Below are positions 9,193 to 33,413 of a stretch of 64,000 bases of DNA, in pieces. Positions within the stretch are counted from its first letter, which is position 1; every line of letters starts with the position of its first letter. The notes beneath the pieces are model-generated. The model made no database searches. It had not been told where the DNA came from and was given only the letters and a program-made list of their open reading frames with translations. This DNA is from a virus. Both the position numbers and the translations under genes were made by a program. The stretch lies in IMG/VR virus record IMGVR_UViG_3300023084_000003. One strand, 5' to 3'.

Positions 9193-9193
9193 A

Positions 9194-10237: not shown

Positions 10238-10262
10238 CTTAACTCCATAATATAAAATTCAC

Positions 10263-10601
10263 TTAGTTCCAAGCAGGTTTAAAAGAACTCCTTGTTGCTC
10301 TATTAGTATTTATCTTATCCTGCAAAGTCTTATTCATGATTGCGACATCACCGTCTGTCATGTTAGATTCAATCCATGAAACAACATGAGATTTTTGTAC
10401 TGCAGATAGTGCAATAAAATCTTCAGCCAAAGTGCTTGAAGCTGAAACATGGGTAACACCTTTGTAACTTGCTTCTGTACCGTCATCGTCAACAGCTCTG
10501 CGTTTCCAGTCAATTCTTACAATAGAATCTGAAAGGCTGGAACCATCAGAGCTCGTTTCCTCTTGCGTGGTGAGCTTGAGTATTTCCCAAGAATAGTTCA
10601 T
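10263..10601 (-). CDS. Conserved phage hypothetical protein (DUF7936-like), paralogue of 10609..11007
   Basis: MNYSWEI..L...D.IV.I.WKR...D.DG....Y.G...FI....V....VVSWI pattern shared with neighbour. Confidence 0.55.
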   Translation of the reverse strand: MNYSWEILKLTTQEETSSDGSSLSDSIVRIDWKRRAVDDDGTEASYKGVTHVSASSTLAEDFIALSAVQKSHVVSWIESNMTDGDVAIMNKTLQDKINTNRATRSSFKPAWN

Positions 10602-10608
10602 TATTCAC

Positions 10609-11007
10609 CTATTCTGCTGGTGCGTCTGGATCTGCGTCAGATTGCGCTGGTGCTTCTTCTGCTACTACCCAAGGAGGGTTACGATCTTCTTCTAAGCCAG
10701 CGTCAATTTGTTTTTGAATTTGTTCATCAATATGAGCTTTATAAGTTGAGTCTGCATCAATTACTGCATTGATCCAACCTACTACAGTAGCTTCTTCAAG
10801 ATCTTCAAAAGCTACGAAAGAACCAGCAGGCACGTTTTCTGCTGTAAAAGGAGTTGCGCCTGAAAAGGTACCTTCGTTGCCGTCTGCATCCGTTCCTGTG
10901 CGTTTCCAATATGTTTGAACAACAGCGTTGCTTAGAGTAACGCCTTCGCTGTTTACCTGATCTCTAACCTTCAGGTTAGTAACAGTTGTGCTGTATGAGA
11001 AAGCCAT
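10609..11007 (-). CDS. Conserved phage hypothetical protein (DUF7936-like)
   Basis: VVQTYWKRTGTDADGNEGTFSG...FVAFEDLEEATVVGWI; GGAG RBS; late promoters upstream. Confidence 0.55.
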   Translation of the reverse strand: MAFSYSTTVTNLKVRDQVNSEGVTLSNAVVQTYWKRTGTDADGNEGTFSGATPFTAENVPAGSFVAFEDLEEATVVGWINAVIDADSTYKAHIDEQIQKQIDAGLEEDRNPPWVVAEEAPAQSDADPDAPAE

Positions 11008-11089: not shown

Positions 11090-11650
11090 TTAACCTCTAT
11101 ACAAATAAAGATCTACGGGAACACATATTCGTAATGACGAATAATACGGGTTAACATGATGATATGTAAAACTTGGAAATATCATAAAATCTCCAGTTTC
11201 TGGTTGGTGGTGATGTCTTTCAAACATAGGATCAAACCACTCATCATATCCTCTATTAGCATTACTTCTTGGATCTGAGAAAACGATATCCCCACCAGAA
11301 CTCCGATCCTCTGCTAATACATAAAAGACTGCCGACAAATGAGCTCCGGAATGATTATGAATTGTCATAGAATAATCTTTGCCGTGGCCGGTTATCCATC
11401 CTTTCATCTCATACTGGCGATAGTCTGTAATCTTTTTACCTATAGTTTTCTTCAAATACTCATCAAACTTTTGATAAACCATCTCTTCAAAGTCAATAAT
11501 AACATCCGAGCCGTCATCCATAATGTTATAGCCGCCAAGATCGCTAGGCGGTGATTGCAAATCATACTCAGTAAGAATATGCTCAGCAAGACCGGGCACA
11601 TTAAACTTACCTTTTGCTACTTGAGTAGGCCATAAGTTTTCAATAATCAT
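11090..11650 (-). CDS. Putative Fe(II)/2OG oxygenase (2OG-FeII_Oxy_5 / TIGR02466-like)
   Basis: HNHSGAHLSAVFYV...GGDIVFSDPR...PETGDFMIFPSFTYHHV...R. The track start is 11683; the ATG at 11650 (MIIENLW), right after the upstream stop, is more plausible. Confidence 0.8.
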   Translation of the reverse strand: MIIENLWPTQVAKGKFNVPGLAEHILTEYDLQSPPSDLGGYNIMDDGSDVIIDFEEMVYQKFDEYLKKTIGKKITDYRQYEMKGWITGHGKDYSMTIHNHSGAHLSAVFYVLAEDRSSGGDIVFSDPRSNANRGYDEWFDPMFERHHHQPETGDFMIFPSFTYHHVNPYYSSLRICVPVDLYLYRG

Positions 11651-11651
11651 A

Positions 11652-12347
11652 TCACACCTGCGCCGGATCGTAGCCACTTTCATGGCCTTCTGTTTTCACA
11701 CCATTATAAGTCATGATTCTTTCCACATCCGGGTGAATTGACAGGTTACAAACTACAGTTACTCTTTCATTACCAAAGTATTGAGTGACATTGTGCCAGA
11801 TATAAGTTGGGACAATAACCATTCTTCGAGCTCTCGTATCCACCTCATAGATCTGAGGATTTCTCATGCCGGGATTTGTATGAAATGACGGATCCCAAAG
11901 TTGTAGTACTCCGCCTTCCTTATCATTATCAACATCATCTAAGTAGAATAAACCATATGCTAATGAACCAGGATGTGTATGCAAAGCAATATAATCGCCT
12001 TCTTTCATGACAGGCATTTGCCCATGTTGGTTTGCTATCATTTCATCGATTTGTTGTTTTGTAAGAGTATTACCTTCATACGATTCAGCGAGCTCAAGAA
12101 AACCTTTTTTAAACTCTTCTCTCACCTTATCTAAGACTGGAAACAGCTTAATGTTTTCTTCTGTAAATAAAGGAAAAGGATCTGAGTTTACATGATATCC
12201 TGGCTCTCCAATGCCGTGCTCATAATGATGAGTCCATGTAGCATGAGCACATATTCTTAGTTCATCCATTTCTTCGTCTGTAAAAGGAAGATTATCTTTA
12301 ATTAAAATGTGAGTTGGATGAATTTTTACAATACTTGGATTATCCAT
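11652..12347 (-). CDS. Putative Fe(II)/2OG oxygenase (2OG-FeII_Oxy_5-like)
   Basis: HTHPGSLAYGLFYL...GGVLQLWDP...MVIVPTYIWHNV...RVTVVCN. Confidence 0.78.
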   Translation of the reverse strand: MDNPSIVKIHPTHILIKDNLPFTDEEMDELRICAHATWTHHYEHGIGEPGYHVNSDPFPLFTEENIKLFPVLDKVREEFKKGFLELAESYEGNTLTKQQIDEMIANQHGQMPVMKEGDYIALHTHPGSLAYGLFYLDDVDNDKEGGVLQLWDPSFHTNPGMRNPQIYEVDTRARRMVIVPTYIWHNVTQYFGNERVTVVCNLSIHPDVERIMTYNGVKTEGHESGYDPAQV

Positions 12348-12351
12348 ATTT

Positions 12352-12855
12352 TCACCTTTCCATAATATTAAATTCTATATTTGCCACATCTCTATTTATA
12401 GTCTTTTTTAAGTTTATCACTCTATGCCTAAATTCGTCCGTTTGATTTAAAACCACGATATCATATTTCTTTGGATATATTGTAACACGATTGGGTGAAT
12501 TTTCTCTTTTGATTTCAATCCCGCCACCAGTTGATTCATCCATGTCTGTTAAATACATTAAGAAAGCTATATTAGATCCTTCTATATGATCTGTGTGCCA
12601 TGTATCTGTTTGTTGATCTATACCTCTCCAAGCATCTACATTACCAAAAATAGAATCTTTGTCTTTTAAAATTAAACGATTTATTTTCTTTTGAGTTTTT
12701 CTTAAAAGCCACAAACCTATTGGCCAATAATGAATTGGATATTTCGCTCCATGATTCTTTATCATTGGACATCTATAGAACCACTTTAAATAAGTAAAGA
12801 GTCGTGGATCATTAAAATGATCGTATCCTTCTATTTGTAGCTTTTCATAATTCAT
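12352..12855 (-). CDS. Fe(II)/2OG dioxygenase (prolyl-hydroxylase-like)
   Basis: WHTD...FLMYLTD....GGGIEI...VVLNQTDEFRHRV: HxD...H facial triad and downstream Arg. Confidence 0.8.
   Translation of the reverse strand: MNYEKLQIEGYDHFNDPRLFTYLKWFYRCPMIKNHGAKYPIHYWPIGLWLLRKTQKKINRLILKDKDSIFGNVDAWRGIDQQTDTWHTDHIEGSNIAFLMYLTDMDESTGGGIEIKRENSPNRVTIYPKKYDIVVLNQTDEFRHRVINLKKTINRDVANIEFNIMER
12393..12400 (-). promoter_or_regulatory. Possible embedded late promoter TATAAATA
   Basis: Exact consensus inside the 3' end of the upstream CDS, 46 nt before the ATG at 12347; could be chance. Confidence 0.4.
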
Positions 12856-13262
12856 TCATCTACAGATTCTAAAATCTCTTCTTTGTAATATTCATATATA
12901 TCCGGCACCATACCAGTCATATCAACTTCACCGATAGCATCAAGAATAGCATCATATGTATAACGATCTTCATCGTATGGAACAAAGTAAGGATCGTGCG
13001 GTAATAGTTCTGAGTCGTTTAATGTATCATAGAAATCTTCTTCAAAATCATCACCAATCCATGTCGCATAACAAATCGCTACTACATAAGATTTAGATGG
13101 GTAGATCCATTCATCTACATATTCTTCGAAGTGGCGAACTGCTTCTGTAATAATATCCTCGCCTTCTACTAAATTAATTTCTACGTCTCTCAGATCATCT
13201 TTATATTCTGCATCTCCGTTGACCATACTGAAATATTGCTGCCTGATTTTCCATTCTTTCAT
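12852..13262 (-). CDS. Hypothetical acidic protein in the radical SAM cluster
   Basis: 136 aa, overlaps both neighbours (4 nt and 1 nt); YPSKSYVVAICYA motif. Confidence 0.7.
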   Translation of the reverse strand: MKEWKIRQQYFSMVNGDAEYKDDLRDVEINLVEGEDIITEAVRHFEEYVDEWIYPSKSYVVAICYATWIGDDFEEDFYDTLNDSELLPHDPYFVPYDEDRYTYDAILDAIGEVDMTGMVPDIYEYYKEEILESVDE

Positions 13263-14008
13263 TATGCCTCGTATTCCTTTAGTAATTGTGCCTTATCACA
13301 AAAATCTAGATATGCACTGGTGACTTTATAGTGATTATAGAAAAATAACTTCTTAATTCTTTCCCATATGTTTCTTTCTACCATTGGGTAACCAAACGTA
13401 AATACGATTGATTCGTAATGAGTATATTCACGATTCATTTGAATATTCCAAAACTTGGTAAGATCCTCGTCGGTGTATGGTTTATCTCTCCTGTCTGCAA
13501 TAGGAGAGTTAGCGAACGAGAAATCATCGTAAACTATATGTAGGTGTATTGCGTCAGACCACCAAGGTACTGGTTTCTTTGGCCTTTCGACTGTATTTAT
13601 TGCGTTGTCATACCAGTAAATATCACAACCAAGTTTATTCACTTCTTCTATAAATTCTTGCTTCTGCTCTTTTGTATTAAATACGACTCCTATATACCTG
13701 TGTCTGGAATCGTCGTGGCCTTGACAACTTGTGTATGTCAAGTAGCCTTTCTTATGTAACTCAAGTACTGCCCTCTTCACACCGGGCTCTAAATTTTTAT
13801 CGATTATATCTGAGTACTGACTTACAAATGTGCTTACATATTGCCCAAGATGATCTCGGAACATGTAAGTTCTTCCGTTGACGAGATGTAGATTACCTTT
13901 TTCAAACATAGCATAACGATGACCATCTTCTACACTTCGTAAATGAGGATCGTCTTTTCTGCTATATTCTTGTTGATACTGTACTCTATACTCGTACTGC
14001 GTCTTCAT
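13262..14008 (-). CDS. Hypothetical protein in the radical SAM cluster
   Basis: 248 aa, overlaps neighbours; contains GYLTYTSCQGH. Confidence 0.7.
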   Translation of the reverse strand: MKTQYEYRVQYQQEYSRKDDPHLRSVEDGHRYAMFEKGNLHLVNGRTYMFRDHLGQYVSTFVSQYSDIIDKNLEPGVKRAVLELHKKGYLTYTSCQGHDDSRHRYIGVVFNTKEQKQEFIEEVNKLGCDIYWYDNAINTVERPKKPVPWWSDAIHLHIVYDDFSFANSPIADRRDKPYTDEDLTKFWNIQMNREYTHYESIVFTFGYPMVERNIWERIKKLFFYNHYKVTSAYLDFCDKAQLLKEYEA

Positions 14009-14921
14009 TATACCATTCTAGTAGGTTGAAATAACCGTTGCAACCGTTTTGTTTTGGTGGGAATGCTACAAATTTGTAGTGCTCGGTTAAACACTTTCCA
14101 AAATATTTGCATTGCCTACATATATCTGATACACCACTGTTCTTTTCTTTTACGGTCCATTGTTCATATTCTAGAAAGGATTCCAGTTCCGTAAAGCTTT
14201 CGTTACCAAGTAAGTCGAAATCCAATACACCAAACTTGCCGTTAGGAGTAATATACACATGATCATCGCTAAAGGCGTTATAATTGCCATCTAAACATTC
14301 CTCTATCTTATCTTGATTTATGAATTGAAAGTTCTTCTCAATAGGACTATCAATCCATTTCATAATAAACTCTTCGTATTCAAGATCAGTAACATACTGC
14401 TTACGATGAGTTGTAGAGCTGAATGGTTTAATCTCTACAGCAATCAGATTGCCTAGAGTGTTAAACATATTAATCATATAGTCTACATCTTCATTTATAA
14501 CATATTCTGATGCTAATGTCAATACCGAAAATGGTCTATTTAACTTAAGCATATTACCGAACACGATCATCTCTTTCTCGCGAGCACCAAAATCATATGA
14601 TACAGATAGATCAATATCTTCTCTAAGAAATGATTTACGTATTGCAGAAAGATTGGTAATAATCGAGATCGTACATTCGTATTTATCTTTGATTCTATCG
14701 ATCAAATCATCTAAATATGTATCAGGTAGAATACCAATCTCACCACCATAAAGATCGATGTGTGTCACAGTAGGCTTAATCTCACTTAATCGTGCCATAA
14801 TTGTGTCAATAGATGTAGTTGTTCTGTCACGTAGTTGTTCTTTACTTAGATAGCAGAAATCACAATTAAAGTTACAAAAATAGGTAGGGTTAATCGATAC
14901 TGAGAACATCAATTTCCTCAT
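13986..14921 (-). CDS. Radical SAM enzyme with C-terminal Cys cluster (degenerate SPASM-like)
   Basis: CNFNCDFC (CX3CX2C), YGGE motif; C-terminal CRQCKYFGKCLTEH...GCNG. Confidence 0.88.
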   Translation of the reverse strand: MRKLMFSVSINPTYFCNFNCDFCYLSKEQLRDRTTTSIDTIMARLSEIKPTVTHIDLYGGEIGILPDTYLDDLIDRIKDKYECTISIITNLSAIRKSFLREDIDLSVSYDFGAREKEMIVFGNMLKLNRPFSVLTLASEYVINEDVDYMINMFNTLGNLIAVEIKPFSSTTHRKQYVTDLEYEEFIMKWIDSPIEKNFQFINQDKIEECLDGNYNAFSDDHVYITPNGKFGVLDFDLLGNESFTELESFLEYEQWTVKEKNSGVSDICRQCKYFGKCLTEHYKFVAFPPKQNGCNGYFNLLEWYNEDAVRV

Positions 14922-15942
14922 TCACATATGGGGTTACACTGTTTGGATCTAATCCGTTAATTTCTAAAATACGAGGGGCAAGAGATTTCATGTGTTTGCA
15001 ATGAGATTCTGCTTGCCCTTCTCGCTTCATATCACGCACTGTTTTTTTACAGCCATTACATATTTCAAACATAGGACAACTATAACAGGCTTGCTTTAAT
15101 GTTTGAATATTAAAGTCATCTTGTAGTGGAGTGGAAAATCCTCCGTTTAACTCATGTTCAAAGGAGATAGGATAATCCCTATCATCACCAAAGGAACCAC
15201 AAGAATAGTAATCGCCTCCAGGATTGAAGGCCCGTATGTGTTCGTCGCATCGACGATTTTGTGGACAACTTGTTGCATTACCTTTTAACCTCCGCATCAT
15301 TTGCTTGGTATTATATTCCCACTTCCACAGACCTCGATCGTAAATTTCGACGTAAGTCTCATAAATCTTACTTAGTCTGTAAGTGGACCCTTGTATACCA
15401 GAGGCCATAGCATAATTGAGTTTGCATTCGACATCCATTTCCTTAGCAAGCTCAACATTACGAATAGCATCTGGTGCATCTTCATCAGTCATAACTGCAA
15501 TAAAATCTGGACGATATCCAACAAGATCTAGCATCTTATTCGATGCCAACCAGAAATCTTTCTCTGTGAAGATTGTGTAATCGCCTTTTAAACGACCTTT
15601 ACCATATTGGAAACTGGTACATATTCCTAGACGTGGGTGGCGAAACAAATCTATCCACTTCTCTGGCTTTACAACAAAAGGCCATAAATTGGTTGTGAAA
15701 CTAATATTCGCAGGATAGTCATGCTCATCTAAATGATCTATAATCTTCCAATAATAACTAGGTTCCACCATCAAAGGGTCGCCACCATTTACGATAATGG
15801 TGCGAGTGTGAGGATACCTCTTTAAAAATTTGAAAATATAATCATGATCCAAAAGCTTTGCTTTATTCGGATCAATATCTGTAGACGAACAGAAAGTACA
15901 CTTAAAGTTGCAAGCTTCTGTCGGCTTTATTATTAGTTCCAT
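14890..15942 (-). CDS. Radical SAM/SPASM-domain enzyme
   Basis: IKPTEACNFKCTFC, NGGDPL, FTTNL; C-terminal CPQNRRC...GDYYSCG...CYSCPMFEICNGC...HC. Confidence 0.92.
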   Translation of the reverse strand: MELIIKPTEACNFKCTFCSSTDIDPNKAKLLDHDYIFKFLKRYPHTRTIIVNGGDPLMVEPSYYWKIIDHLDEHDYPANISFTTNLWPFVVKPEKWIDLFRHPRLGICTSFQYGKGRLKGDYTIFTEKDFWLASNKMLDLVGYRPDFIAVMTDEDAPDAIRNVELAKEMDVECKLNYAMASGIQGSTYRLSKIYETYVEIYDRGLWKWEYNTKQMMRRLKGNATSCPQNRRCDEHIRAFNPGGDYYSCGSFGDDRDYPISFEHELNGGFSTPLQDDFNIQTLKQACYSCPMFEICNGCKKTVRDMKREGQAESHCKHMKSLAPRILEINGLDPNSVTPYVNEEIDVLSID

Positions 15943-16963
15943 TCAATAATTCCATCATCAAAGTTTTAGGTGCAGGACAAACGTCACCTTGCCATTCAAG
16001 TTGGTGGCAGTCGGAGTGGCAATAGGCAAATACCGGACACGAATAGCAACGTGGATCTCTTATGACTTGTTCGTCGATAATTACCTTTTGCCGCCCCTTG
16101 CTATTTATAACGTCTTCTACTGATTGTTTAATATTGCCATAATGATCGGTAGGAGCAGCGTTAGGGCAGCCAGCAATAGTACCATCCGCATTAATCGTAA
16201 ATAATTTTTGTTCACAATCTCTGCAAAACGTTCCTTGGTGTAAGAGTCCTTTTTCAAATTTGTTATAGACCGTTTCCATGAAGACATCTTCAAACTCCTC
16301 TCTTATATCATAACATTCCTCATATGCTCTCATAAAGAAATCTTGAAGTGCTGCATTCGTAGGATAAAGCTTTTCGCCATATAACAAAGCATTACCATTA
16401 CCGGTAATACGTTCCCAAGATATTTCCGTGATGCCAAGACCTCTCAAATAATCAATCATTTCTCGAGGAGACCTATTGACAACGTCCTTAGATAATGATA
16501 CAAATGCTTTAAGAATGAATCCTTGATCTACTAAGAATCTTACGTTGTCTTCCCAAAGCTTTTCTTGCTTTTCATTTGCAAAGCGTATTGTTGGATCCCA
16601 TGATGTTCCAATACGTTTACCTGTCATTACACGAGAAAAGAAATCTAATCTATCATCTGTTAACTTATATGTAAGATTAGTTGTAATACCGAATGAACCT
16701 CTTACGCCCCATACGCTTTGTACTCTATTATAGAATTCAAATAGATCTTCGGTTTTAGCAAGCATAGGCTCGCCACCGTGATATTCAAAGTGGCATATTT
16801 TTGTGCCATCATATAACTGATTAACCCAGTTAGCGGTAGCCACTGGGTCAAAGTATATTTTAGCTCCGTTGATTCCGCTTGTAAAGCAGTGGAAGCAATT
16901 TAAGTTACACGTCTCCGTGGTCTTGACGTATACACTCAGATTGCTCTGTATCGGACAAACCAT
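15902..16963 (-). CDS. Radical SAM/SPASM-domain enzyme
   Basis: KTTETCNLNCFHC, YHGGEPML, TTNL; CRDC...DGTIAGCP...CYSCPVFAYCHSDC (CX2CX5CX3C)...C. Confidence 0.92.
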   Translation of the reverse strand: MVCPIQSNLSVYVKTTETCNLNCFHCFTSGINGAKIYFDPVATANWVNQLYDGTKICHFEYHGGEPMLAKTEDLFEFYNRVQSVWGVRGSFGITTNLTYKLTDDRLDFFSRVMTGKRIGTSWDPTIRFANEKQEKLWEDNVRFLVDQGFILKAFVSLSKDVVNRSPREMIDYLRGLGITEISWERITGNGNALLYGEKLYPTNAALQDFFMRAYEECYDIREEFEDVFMETVYNKFEKGLLHQGTFCRDCEQKLFTINADGTIAGCPNAAPTDHYGNIKQSVEDVINSKGRQKVIIDEQVIRDPRCYSCPVFAYCHSDCHQLEWQGDVCPAPKTLMMELLNGTNNKADRSLQL

Positions 16964-17402
16964 AACTAAACATTAATCCTTCTCGTACATTCAATGCTCT
17001 GTGAGGAGTATCTGCGGGTATTTGCCAAAAGTCTCCCTCCTCAAGATTATGAATAACGTCGTTCACTTCAATTGTTTTATGACCAGCACTTACATGTAAT
17101 AATACATCAACTGGGTCGGTATGTACACCAAAACTTGGCGATTCTTTCCAGTATCTAAAAGCATGAATGGTGCCTTCTTTAAAGCCACAAACGTGTTCGA
17201 TACCTTCAACCTTTATTGTATCATTAGATTCTGCAAGCTTTACTTGTACCTTTGCTAAGTACTCATTGTAGTCATCTGATACTATTTTAACATCTTTTCC
17301 ACGATTGTCAATATATAATGTGCGATCATACATATAAGCTTCATGGCTTAGTACGTATTCTTCAAAGTCTTCGTAGGACCATTTTAAATTAGGCAGTTGC
17401 AT
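16905..17402 (-). CDS. JmjC/cupin Fe(II)/2OG oxygenase-like protein
   Basis: SFGVHTDPVDVL...G.K....LEEGDFWQIPADTPHRA: HxD...H with cupin motif, as in ROXA/NO66-type cores. Confidence 0.75.
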   Translation of the reverse strand: MQLPNLKWSYEDFEEYVLSHEAYMYDRTLYIDNRGKDVKIVSDDYNEYLAKVQVKLAESNDTIKVEGIEHVCGFKEGTIHAFRYWKESPSFGVHTDPVDVLLHVSAGHKTIEVNDVIHNLEEGDFWQIPADTPHRALNVREGLMFSYGLSDTEQSECIRQDHGDV

Positions 17403-19305
17403 ACTCTAGTTCCTTTGTTTGAGTAGGCTGAGAAAATGCCCTTACAAAGAGTTCGTTAAGAAGAATGATTTCATTATCGTCTTGTGTGAGTTCCATGATG
17501 CATTCTAATCTAGATTTGTTGCCAATAATTCTTTTCAATCCACGAGGTGGAGTGTCTGGATTCAAAATGTCTACAATATTTTCGTGCACCTCGTCAAAAC
17601 CAGGAATACAATCACGAATTACAGCGTAACACATTCTGCAAAACTCTGCTGGAGTAAGAACATCTTTAAATGTGTCATAATGCTTTTGCAAAAGAATATT
17701 ACCACAAACATTCATAAACCACATCTCATGAAATTCTTCGCGAGTAAATGAATAGCAAGATGCAATTGTTTTAAAGTAAGACTTTAGGCCACGATATAGA
17801 CCATATCTATTATCAGCCCCGCCTTCTTCAATAACATCGGTATAGCATTCCACAACTTCAATATCATACTTTTTTATATATTCAGGATCTGTAAGTTCAG
17901 AATCTGGTAGGAACATATAGTCATGTCTCCATGAACCGTATGATTTAAAGTTATAGTAAATCTCATACTCATTATAGAAGTCATCTATAGTAGATCCAGG
18001 CATTCCTAGAATTAATTCTACGGGTGGCTTTGGATAACCTTCAACGTTGCAACGCTGATTAATATGGCGCGCGAGTGCTAACTTATCTTCTAAATTTAGA
18101 TCAACTCTATTTACTACATCCATAGCTTCTTTACTAATACTTTGGATACTTACTGTTGGAACTACTGAGATATAAAGAGCTTCGCCTTCTGCTGCTTGCT
18201 TTCTTCTAATATCATCTTCCCAGTCTTCTCCATCTTGCTCACCAAAATTATCAACCATTCCACGGCTCGTATTCTGTTCATTGAATACGTGAATTGTGGT
18301 ACCCATAGCCTGATTTTCTGCCGAGCCCATAAAGAACAATGCATGAGAACCTTGCTCAGGTACAAACACTTCTGAGTGCTTCTCTTCGCCTGTTCCTAAC
18401 GTGTCAAACCATGCATCAACAAGTTTCTTTCTTCTTGCAAGGTCTCTTGATTTAAAAGTTGAGATGTCGGTAAGATTAAATCCATTCTTAAAGGTCCAAT
18501 CAAAGATCTCGATGTCTCTTTCTAAGAATGCGCCGAAGTTTGCATCGGTAAGATAAGCATCTCGGAAGCCTGCGTCTTTCAAAGCCTCAACATCTCGCTT
18601 ATAAATGTCTAGATCTTTCTTATAGATCTTAGTACCAATACCTCCGCCCCATTCACAGAATGCACACTTAAATGGACAGCCACGAGTAGATTCTAATGCC
18701 ATGAATGGCTCAAGTACCTGAGTACGAGCCCACTCGCGCATTTCTTTAAGATAATCCATATGTTCTTCATAAACAGAATAATCTTGGTCTGCGATATTTA
18801 GAACACCTTTTTTATTTGAGCGCCATTCCCAAGTTACATCTTCATGTTTTGGCCATTGATTTAAATTATTAAAATATCCATCAAGCAGAGAGTTCATGAA
18901 TATTTCGCCGGGCTTGGTTACCTGACAAATATAATCATATAGTTCATATCTTAGATTCATTAGTTTTGGCTCGTTACGACCAATATGAGGTCCGCCGATT
19001 ACTGTAATAGCTTCTGGGTTTTGCTCTCTTACGAGCTTAGCAACCTCATCGCACATCTGATAGTTCCAAATATATGAACTAAAGCAGTATACGTCAAGAG
19101 GTTCTCCCTGCTCCATATCTTCTTTAATTTCTTGGAAAGATCGATACACGTCAAATTTGTATGTTGCAGGAACAAACTCTACTTTATCGGGATACATTCC
19201 CTCATGTTTATAATGACTTTCTAACATCATCCACGTCAAATTAGACGGCGTTTGCCAATCTGCATGAGGTGGTGACATGTAACCTAAACGTAATTTTTTA
19301 CTCAT
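17389..19305 (-). CDS. Cobalamin-binding radical SAM enzyme (class B-like)
   Basis: N-terminal B12-binding-type FSSYIWN...VIGGPH; ESTRGCPFKCAFCEW (CX3CX2C), LTDANFG, ELILGMPG. Confidence 0.88.
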   Translation of the reverse strand: MSKKLRLGYMSPPHADWQTPSNLTWMMLESHYKHEGMYPDKVEFVPATYKFDVYRSFQEIKEDMEQGEPLDVYCFSSYIWNYQMCDEVAKLVREQNPEAITVIGGPHIGRNEPKLMNLRYELYDYICQVTKPGEIFMNSLLDGYFNNLNQWPKHEDVTWEWRSNKKGVLNIADQDYSVYEEHMDYLKEMREWARTQVLEPFMALESTRGCPFKCAFCEWGGGIGTKIYKKDLDIYKRDVEALKDAGFRDAYLTDANFGAFLERDIEIFDWTFKNGFNLTDISTFKSRDLARRKKLVDAWFDTLGTGEEKHSEVFVPEQGSHALFFMGSAENQAMGTTIHVFNEQNTSRGMVDNFGEQDGEDWEDDIRRKQAAEGEALYISVVPTVSIQSISKEAMDVVNRVDLNLEDKLALARHINQRCNVEGYPKPPVELILGMPGSTIDDFYNEYEIYYNFKSYGSWRHDYMFLPDSELTDPEYIKKYDIEVVECYTDVIEEGGADNRYGLYRGLKSYFKTIASCYSFTREEFHEMWFMNVCGNILLQKHYDTFKDVLTPAEFCRMCYAVIRDCIPGFDEVHENIVDILNPDTPPRGLKRIIGNKSRLECIMELTQDDNEIILLNELFVRAFSQPTQTKELEYATA

Positions 19306-20411
19306 TTATCTCTCTTCGAATCCACATATCTAAATAGTTCTTTGTTTATACACTCGTCCATGTCCTGCTTCATGTTTCCAGCTTTAATTCCTGAGAAACA
19401 CATCATAGGACATCTTTGATAAAATTCGCATGCATGACAATTATATTTATCAAGGAAACTCGTTAAAGTATTATCAAGAAAATTATCTGGTCCGTTATGT
19501 TGGCGATAAGAAGGCGAGTTAAACTTCTTCAAATAATGAGAGCCAACACATCCTTCTGGAATAATCTTATTGTCCCAATCAATAGCAGCACCATTACCAC
19601 GAGAACATATCGTATGCATCTGATGGTCTTTTGGCTGCATAAAAGGTATAATATATTCTACTTTTGGGTATTTGTCAACCAATAATTTATAAAAAGCTAA
19701 AACTTCTGATTCTAAAGGTATCTCAACGTCGTTATGTTCTGTTCCTTTAATGTATTGATCCCAAGAATAATCAAATCTGCTATATAAGTAATCATAATAT
19801 TCGTCACCTGCTAGTAAAGCTTGAATATTTTGTTTTGTAATCACTGAGTTAATATTACGAATATAAGGTGCAAAGATCTCAATATTCTCTTTAAATATCT
19901 GTAAGTTCTTTTGATTAAATCTACCTTTTAAATCAAACGATACAACGAATGTCGTATCCTCACCCTGCTCATCCATGAACCGTTTAATTTCATCTCTGGT
20001 CTCAACCATACTAAAATTAGAGATCCAAATGAATTCTAGTACTTGATCTGTGAGATTTGTTTTTTCTCTCACTCCATTTGCAAGATCTCTATAGGCTTCT
20101 AGGAGATTAGAATCTTTTAGGATAGCGTCATTAAATGGTTCACCACCAATCATTCGAACAACAAATTCTGTAGCAAAACTATTTTGATTAATATATTCAG
20201 CAATAATATCTGCTTTAGATACTATAGACTCATAGTTCATACCTTTTTTACTATTATGATCTTGTGGGCAAAATGAACACGCAAAGTTGCAGTACTCAAA
20301 GAGTATTACAACAATCTCGCACGACTTATTTCTTTTTTCGAAAATTAGATTTGCAGCGGTGTCAGAGCCCCACTTATCACCAGTCTCGGTGACATCAATC
20401 ATATTAATCAT
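19302..20411 (-). CDS. Radical SAM/SPASM-domain enzyme
   Basis: FEYCNFACSFC, IGGEPF; ICSRG...GCVG and CHACEFYQRCPMMC (CX2CX5CX3C). Confidence 0.9.
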   Translation of the reverse strand: MINMIDVTETGDKWGSDTAANLIFEKRNKSCEIVVILFEYCNFACSFCPQDHNSKKGMNYESIVSKADIIAEYINQNSFATEFVVRMIGGEPFNDAILKDSNLLEAYRDLANGVREKTNLTDQVLEFIWISNFSMVETRDEIKRFMDEQGEDTTFVVSFDLKGRFNQKNLQIFKENIEIFAPYIRNINSVITKQNIQALLAGDEYYDYLYSRFDYSWDQYIKGTEHNDVEIPLESEVLAFYKLLVDKYPKVEYIIPFMQPKDHQMHTICSRGNGAAIDWDNKIIPEGCVGSHYLKKFNSPSYRQHNGPDNFLDNTLTSFLDKYNCHACEFYQRCPMMCFSGIKAGNMKQDMDECINKELFRYVDSKRDK

Positions 20412-20423
20412 TACAAACCTTTA

Positions 20424-21596
20424 TTACGTATGGCTGAATTTATTTAACTGAGTTGTATTTTCTGCAATTTTTAATTGATAAAGATACTCAATCCAAAATG
20501 TATTTATTTTTTCCTGCATATATTCATAGTGCCAAACTTTAGTAGTTCCCTGATAAGTAATATCATCTGCAATAATATCTTCCCAAGCTGTATCTCTTAT
20601 TTCTGTGTTAGATAAGTTTGTTCCATCTATTCTATTAAGCATTCCTTCAGCACCTTTAATAACATCCTGAAGCTCGACGTCGTTAGCATCGTCTGCGTTT
20701 GTATTATCTACAACCCATTGAAGCCATCCCAAGCCTACATCCCAATGCGCAACACGGTATTCCCAGTTTTCTACAAGGGCGTCGTAGGATCTGTCAAAAA
20801 GAAAATCCATATCAGAATTCGCAGCTCTAAGTGAAGTCATCCAGTTTGGATCGGTCCAGTTCAATGTTACGCCAGTCATAGAGCGAACTTTTTCTGTCAT
20901 AATATTATCTCTAATATATTCTCTTAGATCACTAACAATTCCAAAGCCAATTTTTGAATGTATTCTTTGACCTTTTATTGCAATGGGAGTTATTGTAATG
21001 TCACCACACAAATATGCTGCGAGCTGAATCTCAATACACAAACTGTCTCTTAAAGCGTCTCGAACAGACGTATAATAAGAAGCCTCAACAGTATCTGCCG
21101 TATTAAATGCATTATATGCGGTTGCGAATTCTGATTGAGTATACACTGCTTCTGCCATTGCGTCAGCAACTCTAATAGCAGAAAAAGATCTGCTTGACAT
21201 ATTATCAACTTCTACAAGTTTTTCTCTTTGTCTTGTTATATTATAGAGTATAAAAGCAGCGTCAACATCTATATTTGGCATTGCTACTTTAAGCCAAGCA
21301 AAGAACAATTTATGATATGATTCAGCGTCTGCATATATTCTTCCAGACCAATCATTATCATATAAAGATTTAATAAAGTGAGCATATGATTCGTGCTGGC
21401 CCTCATCGCTTCCAATAATATCATCTATTGAAGCTGTCCAATGAAGTATTTCAGTTCCATAGCCAGGACTTGCAAGAGTACTCATATTAGTATATTGATG
21501 CTGATTTCTTTCAACAGAAAATACAGCTCTATCCTGAGAGTTATCATAAGCCCAGTCTGGAGAAACATATACTTTATCAAATAGGTTAAACGACAT
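20424..21596 (-). CDS. Hypothetical protein in the radical SAM cluster
   Basis: 390 aa ORF overlapping the upstream gene by 11 nt; no motif recognised. Confidence 0.7.
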   Translation of the reverse strand: MSFNLFDKVYVSPDWAYDNSQDRAVFSVERNQHQYTNMSTLASPGYGTEILHWTASIDDIIGSDEGQHESYAHFIKSLYDNDWSGRIYADAESYHKLFFAWLKVAMPNIDVDAAFILYNITRQREKLVEVDNMSSRSFSAIRVADAMAEAVYTQSEFATAYNAFNTADTVEASYYTSVRDALRDSLCIEIQLAAYLCGDITITPIAIKGQRIHSKIGFGIVSDLREYIRDNIMTEKVRSMTGVTLNWTDPNWMTSLRAANSDMDFLFDRSYDALVENWEYRVAHWDVGLGWLQWVVDNTNADDANDVELQDVIKGAEGMLNRIDGTNLSNTEIRDTAWEDIIADDITYQGTTKVWHYEYMQEKINTFWIEYLYQLKIAENTTQLNKFSHT

Positions 21597-22683
21597 TCTT
21601 TTTTAATTCCTCTGGTATACATTCGTCCCATTTGCCAGCCGCAATTACTTTTGTTTGTACACAAAGAGTGTTTGCTTCTGTATCAAAGTACGAAAACATG
21701 TTTCTTCCTTTAAATCTATATTCATTAAATTGATTCGTGAAAATCTTTCCTTTTCTATCTCCAATAGATCCTATATAATATCCAATCCAAGGCAGAGCAT
21801 ACGTATTAACAAAGTTAATTCCTACATAGTCTGGATCATCTACCTCTTCAAATGTTTTTTCAACAAAATCGTTAAACTCAGGAATATTTAAACATTGAAA
21901 ATTAAAGATTGGAGATGAGTCTAACATCTCACACCATCTTTTTACAATATCTAAATTCTCTTCAATAAAATCTTCTGCATTATTTAGTCTTTCAAAGTAC
22001 ATGTAAGGTGCTAGTGGATCATCACAAAATTCATCAATTTCTTCTTGATCAACAGTAGGAATATTAGTTCCAAACTCATACATTGGTTTCAGCACTTTCA
22101 TATATTGACAACAAACCGCCAATGCTTCTCTTGCTAACTGCTCAATATCAACCAAAGCTGTTGTTGTGCTCATGTAAGCAGCAACTAATTCTTTTAAAGC
22201 ATCTCTATCATTATAAGTTTCTTCATCAAAATCTGCATCTAGATTCAAGTTACTTAGATAGATCATCAAAGCATTTGCGTCTAGTTTACCAGCTCTATAG
22301 TTAATCTTAAAAGCAGTATTCTCTTTATCCTGAAAGTACTCTTTTAAAACCTCCATAGGTAAAGGACAGCTTGTTTCAATAATCTTTTTTGGTTTTAAAG
22401 CCTGTTTTTTCTTAAGATCTTCTACACTTTCTTGTACATCGTCATTATAAGAGTTGTCTCGGATAACCGCTTGAATCTCTTTACTTACTTGCTCTTTAGA
22501 AGATTTTTTAGGTTTAATATCATCAGCGTTTTCTTCTACGAATTTAAGCACTTCTTCCTTTGTAATGCCTACATTTTTTAAAGCATTCCAAGAAGTAATA
22601 GAAAGATCTTGGTTTCTTTCCCATTCAGATTTTAGAGTTTCAAGTTTTAATCCGGCTTTTTCAATTTTTTCTACAAGATTCAT
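21586..22683 (-). CDS. Hypothetical protein directly downstream of the Cys/His-repeat gene
   Basis: 365 aa; charged helical N-terminus, then ETSCPLPMEVLKEYF...INY...L....MIYLSNLNL; GGA RBS. Confidence 0.7.
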   Translation of the reverse strand: MNLVEKIEKAGLKLETLKSEWERNQDLSITSWNALKNVGITKEEVLKFVEENADDIKPKKSSKEQVSKEIQAVIRDNSYNDDVQESVEDLKKKQALKPKKIIETSCPLPMEVLKEYFQDKENTAFKINYRAGKLDANALMIYLSNLNLDADFDEETYNDRDALKELVAAYMSTTTALVDIEQLAREALAVCCQYMKVLKPMYEFGTNIPTVDQEEIDEFCDDPLAPYMYFERLNNAEDFIEENLDIVKRWCEMLDSSPIFNFQCLNIPEFNDFVEKTFEEVDDPDYVGINFVNTYALPWIGYYIGSIGDRKGKIFTNQFNEYRFKGRNMFSYFDTEANTLCVQTKVIAAGKWDECIPEELKKNVV

Positions 22684-22695
22684 TATATAAATTCC

Positions 22696-23271
22696 TTATC
22701 TTCTTCCTCTAGAACTGTGACAACTTGTATGACAGCTATTGTGACAATACGTAATATCAAAGTCTGCTCTATTATCTTTTAATGTATCCCATGCATTAAA
22801 TAAATTAGTGCAAAGGTTATTAAAATCAGCAGCGTGCGCAACTTCATCTTCTGTAACACCACCACTGTTAACTAATGTCATAGTTTGTCTTTGCCCAGTA
22901 TCACGGACAGTAATACCGTCAGCAGATCCTCTCTCTGTCACTGTGCCACCATCATTCTGGCGAAGCCATCTCACCTTACACTGGCGTATGTTAGTGAGGT
23001 TTCCAGTTGCCGCAGTAAGATGTAAATAAACCTTCACCGCTTCAATAGTCGTACCATCATCACCAATTCCAGTGACTGTTACATCAGAGCTTGGATTATC
23101 TGCAGCATAATTAGCGTCTGGAGCTACCTGCCCATCATCTACGCCTGTAGTCGGTGTGTGTTTTGCTGTAGAATGATACACGATTGTATTGTGGGCTGGA
23201 GTTTCCACCGCATCAATAAATGCCTGTCTCGCTGCTGAATTTTCTATTAAATCGCCTGCTGTTACCGCCAT
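22696..23271 (-). CDS. Putative fibre-tip protein and radical SAM substrate with C-terminal CHxS repeat
   Basis: 191 aa ending YCHNSCHTSCHSSRGRR (22699-22749); start overlaps the stop of the 3369-aa fibre (TAATG). Confidence 0.7.
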   Translation of the reverse strand: MAVTAGDLIENSAARQAFIDAVETPAHNTIVYHSTAKHTPTTGVDDGQVAPDANYAADNPSSDVTVTGIGDDGTTIEAVKVYLHLTAATGNLTNIRQCKVRWLRQNDGGTVTERGSADGITVRDTGQRQTMTLVNSGGVTEDEVAHAADFNNLCTNLFNAWDTLKDNRADFDITYCHNSCHTSCHSSRGRR

Positions 23272-26200
23272 TAGACTTTCACCTCCACTATTCCATTTTC
23301 ACTATTGCTCAATGCGATACCAATGATTTCATGACTATTTATACCGGGCGTGCCGTATGGAACTCCCTTACACTTACCAACAGCTTCTGGATCTGGAATC
23401 AACCACATACCTTTTTTAACATCACCAGATACGAATGCTGGAATACGACCTTTTAGAGCAATAAATGGATTCATTTTAGCTTTTTTAGATTTGTCATTTT
23501 CAATGCCCATATCGTTCATTCTAACGCCAGGTTCTGTAGATATAACACCAACCATTGGTAAACCTTCGCGCCATACTGTAATTTCAGCATCACCATCTAG
23601 ATCAATACCCATTAGAGTGCCTGGCTCATAGATATCATCTGCAGAATATCTTTCCGCAAGGTCAGCCCAGCGAGCGCTTGTTGCAGTACCATTATAAACA
23701 CCATCATTATCAACGTGAGCTTTATCACTTCCATCTCTACGGAACTGACAAATACGGTTTGAGTTACCACCGCCAACAATATAGAAACGATCTGAGTGAT
23801 ATTCAATCTTACCTCTATCGTTACCTGGATCTCCTGTCCATTGAACGTCAGGTTCGTTGAAACGCATGCCTGGAGAATATCCATCTCTGTGAGTCATGCG
23901 GAACATCCATTCTCCGCCTGAGTTTAAGAAACCTTGCCACAACGAATCACTAGAACTATCACCTTCACCATGAATCCAGAAACGACTTCTACCGTCAAAT
24001 GTAGCCAAACCACGAAGGTTCATTGCGCTGTCATTATTGTTACCAGTCATTCTCCATTCTTGGGAATTCGTAGCATAGAAGTCTGTACCATTAGCGTCAT
24101 TGCGCAAGCCGCGGCCGTCACTATCGTTCCGATACCAACCGTCGTTATCAATATTACCTCTAATATCAAGGCTGTTCATGCGTGATGTGCCGGCTGGGTT
24201 CGTATAATAGAAAGTGTTGTTTCTATCATAGAAAATCGGTGCACGCATCGAAGTGTAGGATTGGCTGTTCCCGCTGTTATCTACATAGAAACGTGTAGAT
24301 TGGGCGTCTTCGTCCCAAACCACAAACACGTTTTCATCTGCAGCACCACCAACCATAACGCCGTCATCGGTAATTTTAATAAAACCAACATCAGAACTAT
24401 ATCCAGTTTGAAGAATAAGACCATATCCATCTAGGCCGTAGTTGTAAACTGTTGAGTTTGTGTTTGGAGTTCCTCGTGTAGTTCTGTCACCGTAGAAAAT
24501 ATAACCTTCGTAAGTGTAACTCCCGCCAGTATCAACAAACGATATTTTTCCATTTAATGATAATTCATTTAGCTTTGTAGTACTTGCTGGATCTGCATAG
24601 TAGCCTGAATCATTTCTATCATAGTAAATGTCGCCGTAGACAGAGCCACGAAGATATGAAGTACCATTGATATCGAGAGTATAAGCAGGACCAGATGTCG
24701 TAGATCCACCAAAGCCAGAGCTTATTCTTCTTGCTACTGTAAGATCACCGTTTGTTGTAAGTGACATAGCACCTTGAGCTGTAGTATGACCCGTGTCACC
24801 CCACCAGAAACCACGATCATCCTCATCATTGAACTGGAATGTCATAGCCCAGTCATTCAGAGCACCAAACGTAACATCTGATTGCATACCAATGGCATAA
24901 GATGAGCTACTATAAACACGAATTTTATCACGAGTAGAGTTTGCAGGACCAACAAGCCTGTCGAAATCCATTGTGGAAATATTTGAATTTCCGTTCGGAT
25001 TTATATAGTAATTAGTGTCGTTACTATCATAGAAGATAGGTGCACGGTAGTCACTAGAAGCTTGTCCAGTACCTCTAATATAAGAACCGATTTGTTCCCA
25101 ACCATTAACAGAACCAGCTTCACAAGTACGCATCCATGCTGAGCCAACTGATCCCGTGTAGTTAGATCTTGGATATGCTACTTCTAACCAGTAATCAGAG
25201 CTACCATAGTTCAATCCGTATTCTTGTCCAAGAGATGTTCTTACACGATACCACTGACTTGAACCTGTGTTAGGCGCGTTTGTATTACCTTGTACATAAC
25301 TCCAACCCCAGTGATTAACTGCAGCATTAAAGTCAGTATATGTGTTGTGATTGTACCATTGACCAAACTGACCAACTGCAGAAACACCTTGTGTAGCAGA
25401 TCCTCCAGACCCAGTAACACTATTAAAGCGAAGAACATTTAATCTTGTAGTACCAGCAAAGTCGCCGTAATAGTTCGTATCATTTTTATCATAGTAGATA
25501 GGAATATATGCAGCCCCTGTTGCATAAACTCTACCATTAGAACCATCTAGACCAACTCTTGCATCACCATCTGCTGCAACGTATAGACCCCATCCACCAA
25601 GAACACTATTGATACCATCGTAATTGGCATTCGGGTGTGAATAACCAATACCGTACATATTTTCCAAGTTACCATCGGTTGGGTTGTAGTTCGAACCGAT
25701 TGTGTAAATTGGGTTTGTTTTGGTTGAGTTGGCGCCGATATTATTATATGAACCAACTAGGTGGCCTCGAGAGTGGCCTGGTCTATAGCGATAATCAACG
25801 TTAGTACCGTTCATTCTAGACGTAGAGTTACCATCAAAGAAGTAACTGGTATTACTCTGATCGTAGAATACAGTACCTCGTACATCGCCTTGAGCAGTAA
25901 TATTACCGAAGTAAGATCTCATGTTGTATGGACTACCGCCAGCAACTGAACCTAGCGTTCCACGGAAACCTTGACCTGAAAGAATTGTATTTGTAGAATC
26001 TGCTGGACTACCTGGCTCAACTTTTGTGCTGCCGTCATTAGTAGTAATACCATCCTGGCGAATCCATCTCCACCATAACTGCGAATCCCAAGTACAGCCA
26101 TTCATTCTCAACCATAGATATCTATTGTTGTCAATTCTAACTTCTGGAGTAATACTATCGTTTGGATAATTTGTCTGATGGCCGACTGACATTGTCGAGT

Positions 26201-29200
26201 TGTTCCAAGAAGAAACAACCACAGTACCTTTTACAAAGCCTGAATAGTTTACATCATCCTTTGCGTAATATTCAAGAATACCTTTCGCCCCGCCGGTGTT
26301 TGTACGGCCAACGCGGATCCAATAATAACGAGTTCCATTGGTTGAGTCATAAACATATGTACTTGTGTTATACCACCTACCGGTCCAAGGTTGGTTTTGC
26401 GAATAACCACCAACTGTTAAACCGTTAAGGTTAGATGTGCCTGCCGGATCAACATAATATGAGGTATTATCATTATCATACATGCTGTCAGCAAACAAGA
26501 TGTTCTCAACGCGTACGTTATCGTCGCCTTTACCTACTGAGAAGATCTCAGATCCACCGCCGGCGTCTCTTCTTGAGTCATTGTAGAATCGTGTACCACC
26601 GTATGATTTGTTAGCTCCGATTTGAATACCAGTATGCCAGTTCAAGCGAAGCTTAGAGTAATCACCACCGTAATTCTCCTTATCAACATAGATCATGTAG
26701 TAAGGTTGGCTATCGGATCTCTGACCCCATGAAATGCCTGTTACACCCCCGTCAGCTTGAGACGGATCTGATGTAGAATCCCAAAGATTGAGGTGACGAC
26801 CTGGACCAGTAGAGCTACCGTCTCTAAGTAGGAACCCACCGCCGAGCTCTTCGTATCTGTCAGAACGGAAAGCATCTGCCGCCTGGACTGTGTTTAGATT
26901 AGATGTACTTGCCGGATCAAGATAGTAATTTGTATCATTTGTGTCGTAGAATATTGGAGCTCTAACAGATGCGTTATGATAGAACTGAGCAGAATCCATC
27001 TCGCCCATAAGAGTTCTACCATAGTGCATAAATCTTAGTTTACCGCCACTTGCTCCTGATGTAGTTTTATTACCAGAAATACCGGCGTATTCACGGTATG
27101 TGCCACCATTATCTTTTAATCTAAAGTAAAAACCTGCACCAACAGAAGAACTACTATTATCATGGTTTGCACGAGCCAAACGAAGAACGCCATAATCTAC
27201 TGAGTTGCTATTTGTTCCAGTATCTTGAATCATATCAAATGTTACCGGCCCTCCAGTAGTTTGAGAGCGGAAATTGGCCGTACTGGTGCCGGTATTGAAA
27301 TACAAGGAGTTGCTGCTGTACAACCTAATGTTAGACATTCTCGATTCGCTAGCAAAGTTGCCATAATATGAAGTATTATTTGAATCGTAATAGATCGGAG
27401 ATCTCATATTGGATGATGCATAAGCCTCACCGCCAACATGGAAAGTATATGAGGGGCTTGTGGCATTAATACCAACTCTACCATTGTACATCCATGTCAT
27501 AAGCTCGGTGCCGCTAGAAGTAAAGTCAGCACCAAACAAACTGCCACTATTAAATCTCAGGAACATGTTACCAGTAAATTTGTCATCCATACCAAACATG
27601 AATGATGAGTCGCCAGTACTGCTTCCTCCAGTTAGATCGCTGAATTCAATGCCAACGTCACCGTTGTAATTCATAAATCTCATGCGGCCTTCGTTGTTGG
27701 CATCACCCAACATATCCATCCAAACTTCTGTGCCGTTGTTATCAAGCCTAACTCTACCAGCAAGGCGCATTGCCTCACCGGTGCTGTTTGGATTTATATA
27801 ATAAGATGTGTTATTAATATCATAGAAGATAGGAGCGCGCATATCGCCTCTGGCTTGCAGAGAACCACCATTTGTTGCTCTAAATTGATACTGCTGAGCT
27901 CCACCAGTAGTTGCAGTAAACTGTAGATTACCGCCTGAGTTTGTAGTTAGATCATCTGGCGATTCATAAATTCTCCAGTCAGTACCACCTTTCCAACGAA
28001 TACCTTCGTTAGGACCCGGATCATTAAACGCTATATCGTTCAGGTTATCAATGGTACCATTATTCCAGTTCCATGAACCTTCAACACTACCGCCAGTAGC
28101 TGGGTTCATGTATCTTGCAGTATTATCACGATCACGGAAGTTGCTTGCATCAACAGTATTCATCTTAGATGTTGAAGCAGGATTTACATAAAAGTTATTG
28201 TCATTGCTGTCATAGAAGATAGGCGCATAAAGGTTACCTGAGAATCTTGCTTCTTGGGCATCGATGTTTGAAAGATAGTTTGTACGTCTTACAATCGGAG
28301 GACCAAATTCGCGAACAGCACCAGAACCTGCATAGTTCATCAATACGATAACACGAATATATTTACATCCACCGCCGTCAGAACCGTTAAATGGTGAATG
28401 CGACGTTGGAATTGTATGATGGGCTTTATATGTAGTCCAACCCGTGCTTGTTACATTTGCAGCAGAAGCTACAAAATATGTGATACCATCGTTACCTGCA
28501 ATAGGGTTCTTATCTTTATCGTATCTACGTACACCCATATAAAGATAACGAGTACCACCAGAGTCAGAACCACTTACAAGTCTAGCCGAGATCTCACCGT
28601 AGATCTCCATGCCAGGCTCAACTGCGATATAGTCAGAGTCGAATGTTCTGTAACCACTTGTTCTTAGAGCATATGAAGCCTCAAAAGGACCGTCATTATT
28701 TTTGACGAAATCAGCAGTTGAAGTTGTAGCAGAGTCTTCTGCTCCTTGCATAACCTGAATAACACGTTTTTCCCAATATTCAGTACCGTCGAATATAACA
28801 GTATCGGCTTTACCGGAACCATATGCTTTAATAAGGCTAAGATCTTCATTACCGCCGTTAAGAGCAATGTTAGCAAAACGGCCAGTACCGTATGCTTGGA
28901 AATCACCATTTTCTTCAAACCAGAATCTATCACCGATAGAATTAAAGTGAACAATAAAGTTCGAACGATTGTTTCTGTCGTCATGGACCAACCAAGGATA
29001 GTTAGCATCAGCTGCACTATTTTTAAACGCAGCCAAATAACGGTTAGCGTGATGGATCTTAAATGGATACGTGCTGTCAGTAGAAATTCTAGCTTGGTCA
29101 CCAACCGAGATAGACTTCATTCTAGAGTCTGATGCAAAGTCTCCCCAGTATGCAGTGTCTGCGCTATCATAGTAGATAGGAGCACGCATTTGGTTATTAG

Positions 29201-33371: not shown

Positions 33372-33413
33372 TCGGTTCACTCTCCCCAGTTTGGCGTATA
33401 TTCTGCTTTGATA

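Follow-up and report, generated by a model that had tools for sequence, protein, structure and literature searches.

Comparison with described radical SAM systems

SPASM-type radical S-adenosylmethionine (rSAM) enzymes form thioethers at Cys, as PapB does, and cross-links at His or aromatic residues, as in DynA and the triceptides, and His can serve as a cross-link partner in darobactin, dynobactin and triceptide chemistry; B12-dependent rSAM enzymes methylate, and 2-oxoglutarate (2OG)-dependent and cupin enzymes hydroxylate. A precedent for the maturation of a His-repeat protein by rSAM enzymes is the HXS antiphage system (HxsA/B/C/D), in which HxsB and HxsC put +8 Da on a protein with SHRSS His-repeats (PMC13128918). 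The 64,000-nucleotide stretch of viral DNA analyzed here (IMG/VR record IMGVR_UViG_3300023084_000003; the window) carries a cassette of 14 genes, in which the gene of a 191-residue protein ending in a Cys-His repeat (the tail) is followed by those of five rSAM enzymes, a cupin/JmjC-like protein, three Fe/2OG oxygenases and the proteins U365, U390, U248 and U136. The cassette probably directs chemistry of the kind known from peptides that are made by ribosomes and then modified post-translationally (RiPPs) to the Cys and His residues of this tail, on a protein that stays in the phage particle.

The cassette resembles HXS in combining rSAM enzymes with the His-repeat of a protein that is no free peptide; a small helper protein is required in HXS, and the plasmid tail proteins described below share its signal-like N-termini. 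It differs from HXS in that the repeat has an invariant Cys every fourth residue and lies at the extreme C-terminus before R-x-x-R, in that four or more rSAM families are present rather than two, and in that the cassette is phage-encoded, with a substrate candidate that is unexported and virion-associated. Scores against the HXS models (TIGR03976-03979) reached 30.7 bits for HxsB (TIGR03978; cut-off 370) and 24.8 bits for HxsC (TIGR03977; cut-off 267.9); the 365-, 390-, 248- and 136-residue proteins gave no match to the HxsD helper (TIGR03976), 98 homologues of the substrate candidate gave neither an HxsA model match nor a Pfam domain, such as the peptidoglycan-binding domain of HxsA-type substrates, and the hydrophobic N-terminus expected of an HxsA-type signal peptide is absent from the phage members. 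Ranthipeptide and sactipeptide systems (PapB acting on CX3D; the CXXX-repeat families TIGR04114-04116) likewise have Cys every fourth residue and SPASM-type enzymes, but the substrate candidates here are folded proteins of 125-450 residues rather than short precursors, His is invariant beside each Cys, an RRE (RiPP recognition element), a protease and a transporter were not found among the cassette genes, and scores stayed far below the maturase cut-offs (PapB, 40.2 versus 340 bits; TIGR04115, 23.8 versus 350 bits). The top NCBIfam matches of R353 and R350 are to DarE and DynA (46-48 bits), but the cut-offs of those models are 450-650, a precursor motif matching the darobactin, dynobactin and triceptide systems is missing, and the cassette is a multi-enzyme kit. 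By every model cut-off tested, the cassette falls outside the HXS, ranthipeptide and darobactin/dynobactin families, and the general hallmarks of RiPP systems (short precursor, leader removal, RRE, peptidase, transporter) were not found among its 14 genes.

The four rSAM proteins without B12-binding similarity (R369, R353, R350 and R311) each keep a CxxxCxxC motif and invariant C-terminal (auxiliary) Cys clusters, and each forms its own clade in a tree; most of the NCBIfam models nearest to the cassette enzymes describe maturases of peptides or proteins (DarE, DynA, PapB, anSME). With the tail, these four orphan families gain a named 16-residue candidate substrate. A description of the cassette was not found in the literature, including a jumbo-phage review (PMC7824862) and excluding subscription papers, and a report of a virion protein matured by rSAM chemistry was not found in the literature searched.

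The substrate candidate and its tail

The 191-residue protein (22696..23271, minus strand) ends in CHNSCHTSCHSSRGRR, which has the pattern (C-H-x-S)x3-RGRR. The motif CH..CH..CH occurs once in the window and in none of 100 codon shuffles, so it is not attributable to chance. Searches with this protein gave 19 clusters of close relatives; at 50% identity there are 101. Their bodies diverge to approximately 25% identity while the last 16 residues barely vary: Cys and His are kept in 139 of 141 non-redundant tails, with the three Cys at i, i+4 and i+8, the fourth position of the repeat is Ser or Asn, the end is R-G-R-R, and the mean frequency of the top residue is 0.84 in the tail versus 0.34 in the body. 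The AlphaFold2 model has a confident body of three helices and a long beta-hairpin (mean predicted local distance difference test score 88.8) and a score of approximately 55 over the tail; the 16-residue tail is thus predicted to be disordered on a folded body. At one locus (L058:9359-10063), the substrate has approximately 13 Cys-His repeats, some broken by a short spacer, and the end is still R-G-R-R.

Fold searches matched only uncharacterized phage proteins, among them a 296-residue protein of phage Atu_ph07 (E 2.7e-5, template modelling score 0.66). Structure searches of the PDB gave no fold match for the substrate candidate (best Z 3.4) or for the 365-residue helper (best Z 4.8), which is not proof of a new fold. 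Five alignments used as queries against PDB sequences returned nothing, no match of use came from the ESM Atlas, and neither the substrate candidate nor its 98 homologues fit a Pfam or NCBIfam family. No match to the 191-residue protein was obtained from cultured phages by tblastn, and the homologues there were reached through the enzymes instead. None of the 98 phage substrates has a signal-like hydrophobic N-terminus (0 above a score of 2.0). A heme c attachment site (CxxCH) was considered and rejected by our own reasoning, on the grounds that the spacing is CX3CH, the motifs overlap and the phage form is without an export signal.

Co-occurrence of the tail gene and the enzymes

Anchoring on the tail gene gave 79 non-redundant viral or metagenome loci with at least 8 kb downstream of it, and core rSAM genes are nearby in all 79. 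R369 was detected in 78, U365 in 76, R311 and U136 in 69 each, R350 in 65 and R353 in 56; the cupin was detected in 50, 2OG oxygenase homologues in 48, U390 in 41, the B12-binding enzyme in 26 and U248 in 17. The numbers for R353 and the cupin are lower bounds, because both are often encoded upstream, out of reach. In the reverse direction, every one of the 17 loci picked by R350 that reach the substrate slot carries the tail gene; these enzyme-anchored loci were not de-replicated. R350 and R311 occur together in 15 records of cultured phages, and the tail gene is present in all four cultured loci inspected (Phosso, RSL2, Atu_ph07 and DT01), which belong to unrelated jumbo lineages. These results bear out the link between tail gene and enzyme set that the preliminary description of the window proposed, and they narrow the set: the core consists of the substrate, four rSAM families, the cupin and two proteins of no named family, and the B12-binding and 2OG enzymes, which had been counted as part of it, are accessory rather than defining. 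A scan of genome contigs gave a single match, on a 3.5-kb contig of a metagenome-assembled genome.

The cassette is common: besides the 101 substrate clusters, one core gene (U136) forms 877 clusters at 90% identity. It is present in the cultured phages Atu_ph07, RSL2/RSF1, FLC6, S13 and DT01, and can therefore be tested now.

Variant forms were observed in two settings. Marine T4-like loci (L026-L060), with two convergent operons, encode twin 127-residue substrates with a shorter, two-helix body and as many as five additional rSAM enzymes, which make up a clade of their own. In a reduced variant, probably of gut phages (L142:5041-10703 and L145:7559-13187), the helper is accompanied by R350, R353 and one further rSAM enzyme that looks HemN-like by its motif; the substrate tail of this variant is longer and acidic, with Cys-His and Cys-Tyr pairs and without the RGRR end.

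A homologue in virions of Atu_ph07

The 296-residue Atu_ph07 protein is gp170, which has the same fold as the 191-residue protein by structure comparison, and was identified in particles of that phage by eight peptides covering 35% of its sequence (PMC6102473, Table S5); its listed mass of 31.89 kDa agrees with the computed value. The products of the neighbouring enzyme genes (gp164-169 and gp171-172) are absent from the same table. The earlier suggestion that the substrate is a virion protein is thus supported by its homologue. gp170 was found in gel bands 1-9 with its maximum in the uppermost, band 1, and the only other proteins smaller than 40 kDa that peak in band 1 are gp321 and gp616 (PMC6102473, Table S5). 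This position fits a covalent or sodium dodecyl sulfate-resistant assembly, but disulfides would explain it equally well, because the stated loading buffer lists no reductant.

The same tail on plasmid proteins

Among 72,556 plasmids, R350 at E <=1e-10 matches only Pseudomonas megaplasmids. The cluster that it matches is part of a type IV pilus operon; in addition to nine rSAM enzymes, it encodes a phosphoenolpyruvate (PEP)-utilising enzyme, a 2OG oxygenase and a 124-residue protein that ends in four Cys-His repeats and R-G-W-R. This protein, with a signal-like N-terminus, is present in 129 Pseudomonas/Stutzerimonas plasmid records, including pQBR103 (L155:12676-13050), pBT2436 (L238:16001-16375) and pQBR57 (L239:15932-16306); many of the 129 are multidrug-resistance megaplasmids. 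The role of the 'arylsulfatase/radical SAM' cluster of pQBR57, pQBR103 and IncP-2 plasmids has been called unclear or undetermined, and the same papers describe no substrate for it (PMC4989453, PMC7070040, 10.64898/2026.03.27.714766). It is like the phage cassette in that many rSAM/SPASM enzymes and one 2OG oxygenase surround a small protein with a Cys-His tail, and in its setting within the operon of a surface appendage; it differs in the apparently unrelated, signal-bearing body, in Ala or Asn for Ser, and in the Trp of an R-x-W-R end, and profiles of the phage helper proteins gave no match in it. A candidate substrate can thus be named for this conserved rSAM cluster of the pQBR and IncP-2 megaplasmids, which can be studied in tractable models with P. 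fluorescens SBW25 as the host of pQBR57 or pQBR103.

As a test of prediction, the plasmids with the two best R353 matches outside Pseudomonas were examined, having been reached by enzyme similarity alone. The Rhizobium plasmid has a tail protein inside a pilus-linked rSAM cluster (L241:16095-16502). On the 882-kb plasmid of Vibrio parahaemolyticus, no tail protein was found within 15 kb of the cluster, but two are encoded in trans (L248:10339-10692, minus strand, and L249:9870-10250), versus no match for a reversed-pattern control on the same replicon. One of the two Vibrio genes adjoins thioredoxin-fold and trypsin-like genes.

The plasmid tail proteins have 117-135 residues, hydrophobic signal-like N-termini and bodies that show no apparent relation to that of the phage protein. 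Only the tail is common to the phage and plasmid substrates, as expected of a modification target; the same tail on unrelated bodies looks like a portable modification tag, and its presence on plasmid proteins that look exported shows that it is not confined to the fibres of phages. A quick tree without outgroups places the plasmid enzymes with R350 (support 93) and R369 (support 85), from which a single origin of the phage and plasmid enzymes appears likely.

Relation to tail fibres

The substrate gene is joined by TAATG coupling to the gene of a 3369-residue tail fibre (23271..33380, minus strand), which ends in a self-cleaving-type domain with a predicted cleavage after approximately residue 3239; from its conserved motif, this C-terminal domain would act as a chaperone. 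The tip motif before the chaperone-type domain is conserved even where fibre bodies are unrelated. A chaperone-bearing fibre is encoded directly upstream of the substrate in 22 of 72 loci and within seven genes in 49. At one locus (L132:12858-21278), a chaperone-bearing fibre of 2806 residues lies downstream of the cassette on the opposite strand, still linked.

This arrangement is like that of T-even gp37/gp38, in which the second gene follows a chaperone-bearing fibre, and the slot of the 191-residue protein is the one held by gp38-like genes twice elsewhere in the window. The slot behind the fibre argues for a protein of the fibre module, and the substrate may plausibly be the receptor-binding tip, as had been proposed. 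Unlike gp38, which does not depend on modifying enzymes, the 191-residue protein has no loops rich in Gly; the fold searches (best Z 3.4) listed no match for the substrate to the gp38 fold of a helical adaptor and a polyglycine sandwich, and no profile match to the gp38-like gene of the window was found.

The same family of chaperone-bearing fibres occurs without the cassette in phage PA5oct (L151:10993-13649) and in the Campylobacter phage CP220 (L150:19182-20384). In PA5oct, TAATG coupling joins the fibre to another virion protein, which has helix repeats of G-x-x-I-x-A type; gp360 of that phage, in the same slot, gave a weak match only (probability 13%, 31 columns). The rSAM cluster of CP220 (PMC2853527) was tried as a relative and is treated as unrelated, because the core enzymes gave no match and a tail gene was not found.

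Proposed maturation and alternatives

The cassette would be a protein-maturation kit that acts late in infection. Four distinct rSAM enzymes would act on the flexible 16-residue tail of the 191-residue protein, probably presented to them by the 365- and 136-residue helpers; U365, whose gene is nearly always close behind that of the substrate, is a candidate substrate-presenting partner and may play a divergent RRE-like role. Abstraction of hydrogen atoms by the rSAM enzymes would most likely lead to cross-links at the invariant Cys (as thioethers) and His, these residues being modified position by position. The modification appears to be aimed at Cys and His because Ser can be replaced by Asn or Ala and they cannot. 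The cupin, the 2OG oxygenases and the optional B12-binding enzyme would add hydroxyl or methyl groups that vary with the lineage. The tail would remain on its folded body, and the protein would be built into the particle, most likely in the chaperone-folded fibre module: the chance that it caps the fibre approaches even, and that it belongs to another surface appendage is somewhat below even. The rebuilt tail could serve as a rigid binding element, perhaps for a conserved surface target of the host, or as a covalent link to neighbouring subunits, for which the peak of the 32-kDa gp170 in the top band would be a sign. More tentatively, and on balance doubtfully, phages and plasmids may share a new class of post-translational system, in which a portable (Cys-His-x-x)n-R-x-x-R tag is cross-linked by a line of four to nine rSAM enzymes on surface appendages that mobile elements encode, namely the fibres or whiskers of phages and the type IV pilus systems of plasmids.

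It is unlikely that the cassette makes a true RiPP, with the tail as a core peptide that a protease, either of the host or encoded at a distance, removes once it has been modified, the body as a long leader or carrier, and the product as a released effector (a toxin, an anti-defence or an exclusion factor), possibly delivered by the particle. The short plasmid versions with their signal-like N-termini are what such exported precursors would look like, HxsA is processed and exported (PMC13128918), and one Vibrio copy is near a trypsin-like protease gene; however, the phage versions have no such N-terminus and their body is conserved and well folded, the cassette is without a protease or exporter, and gp170 is present in particles at and above full-length size. 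Quite unlikely, too, is a tail that serves as a metal or cofactor site (Zn, Fe, Cu, Fe-S) or as the acceptor of a small molecule that the enzymes build. Pairs of Cys and His with a period of four do suit metal binding, and the up to five extra, unrelated rSAM enzymes of the marine variants and the PEP-utilising enzyme of the plasmids exceed the apparent need of three repeats, but most of the core enzymes are more like peptide maturases than like small-molecule synthases, and the minimal gut-phage version keeps just two core rSAM families and the helper. Phage rSAM and 2OG enzymes occur in base modification, and a nucleotidyltransferase/sugar-isomerase gene lies just downstream of the cassette; a pathway directed at DNA, nucleotides or sugars of the host surface, in which the tail gene hitch-hikes in the late region, is nevertheless very improbable given the strict two-way co-occurrence over unrelated phage lineages and the association of such enzymes with plasmid proteins that are not homologous and have just the tail in common.

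Maturation of a tail that is kept in the particle starts from what is observed of gene content, co-occurrence, invariance and portability of the tail, and virion presence of a homologue; the action of the enzymes on the tail, the bonds formed, the location of the protein and the role of its product are what we infer from these, and several results weigh on the other side. The enzymes all score below every family cut-off, and no RRE was found. The plasmid proteins resemble exported RiPP precursors, which leaves some room for a cleaved peptide; a generic anSME model outscores the R350 profile on the plasmid enzymes, and the ancestry that these share with the phage enzymes is only suggested by the tree. 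No chaperone-bearing fibre was detected nearby in 23 of the 72 loci, and PA5oct and CP220 have this fibre family although no tail gene was found in either. The Atu_ph07 preparation was purified with polyethylene glycol and some non-structural proteins are listed (PMC6102473); the tail peptide is not reported in Table S5 of that paper.

Gene order and neighbouring genes

The 14 open reading frames, all of the minus strand, occupy positions 11090 to 23271 and follow the fibre as coupled genes in the order that the preliminary description gave. That account placed the limit of the block at 23343, which falls inside the fibre gene. It called the run gap-free and mostly overlapping: 11 of the 14 junctions from the fibre to the last oxygenase, the TAATG junction included, are overlaps (measured from the longest possible starts, so that some may be shorter), but three are gaps of no more than 12 bp; a gap of 82 bp follows the block. 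The fibre was also said to be the longest; a reading frame of 3637 residues exceeds it, but this one matches virion-structural and other fibre families. Searches of Pfam, NCBIfam and PHROGs recognized five rSAM proteins, one cupin/JmjC protein and three Fe/2OG oxygenases, with a weak B12-binding match in one of the rSAM proteins, and gave no named family for the substrate or the 365-, 390-, 248- and 136-residue proteins. Domain models recognized no protease, exporter or RRE domain among the 14 genes, in keeping with the original remark that a protease and an exporter are missing.

From the substrate gene onward, the cassette encodes the core helper U365 (21586..22683), with no known fold found; U390 (20424..21596); the core enzyme R369 (19302..20411); and the accessory B12-binding rSAM protein of 638 residues (17389..19305), in which CxxxCxxC is invariant, PF02310 scores 26.4 bits (cut-off 32.1), and the nearest model is the KedN5 C-methyltransferase (102.5 bits versus a cut-off of 700). 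Next are the core cupin/JmjC-like oxygenase of 165 residues with three invariant His (16905..17402) and the core enzymes R353 (15902..16963) and R350 (14890..15942), both rSAM/SPASM, of which R350 is the best conserved (51-60% to cultured jumbo phages), and R311 (13986..14921). The accessory protein U248 (13262..14008) has a conserved S-C-x-G-H motif, within G-Y-L-T-x-x-S-C-x-G-H, that presumably recalls TYW3-like methyltransferases, for which no search gave confirmation. The core protein U136 (12852..13262) is acidic. The three accessory Fe/2OG oxygenases, assigned by Pfam, have 167 (12352..12855), 231 (11652..12347) and 197 residues (11090..11683); the last frequently lies at the cassette's edge.

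With a neck protein, several fibres and gp38-like genes, the window represents the tail region of a large T4-like phage, and near-identical copies sit on contigs of approximately 220 kb. At 7202-11007 are two DUF7936 paralogues, 347- and 413-residue proteins of no assigned function and a nucleotidyltransferase/mannose-6-phosphate-isomerase fusion; a block of this type borders the cassette in many marine loci, at times on the opposite strand. Two more pairs of a fibre and a gp38-like adhesin are encoded at 2422-6725 and 57378-60134, and the phage encodes at least three modules of a fibre plus a partner.

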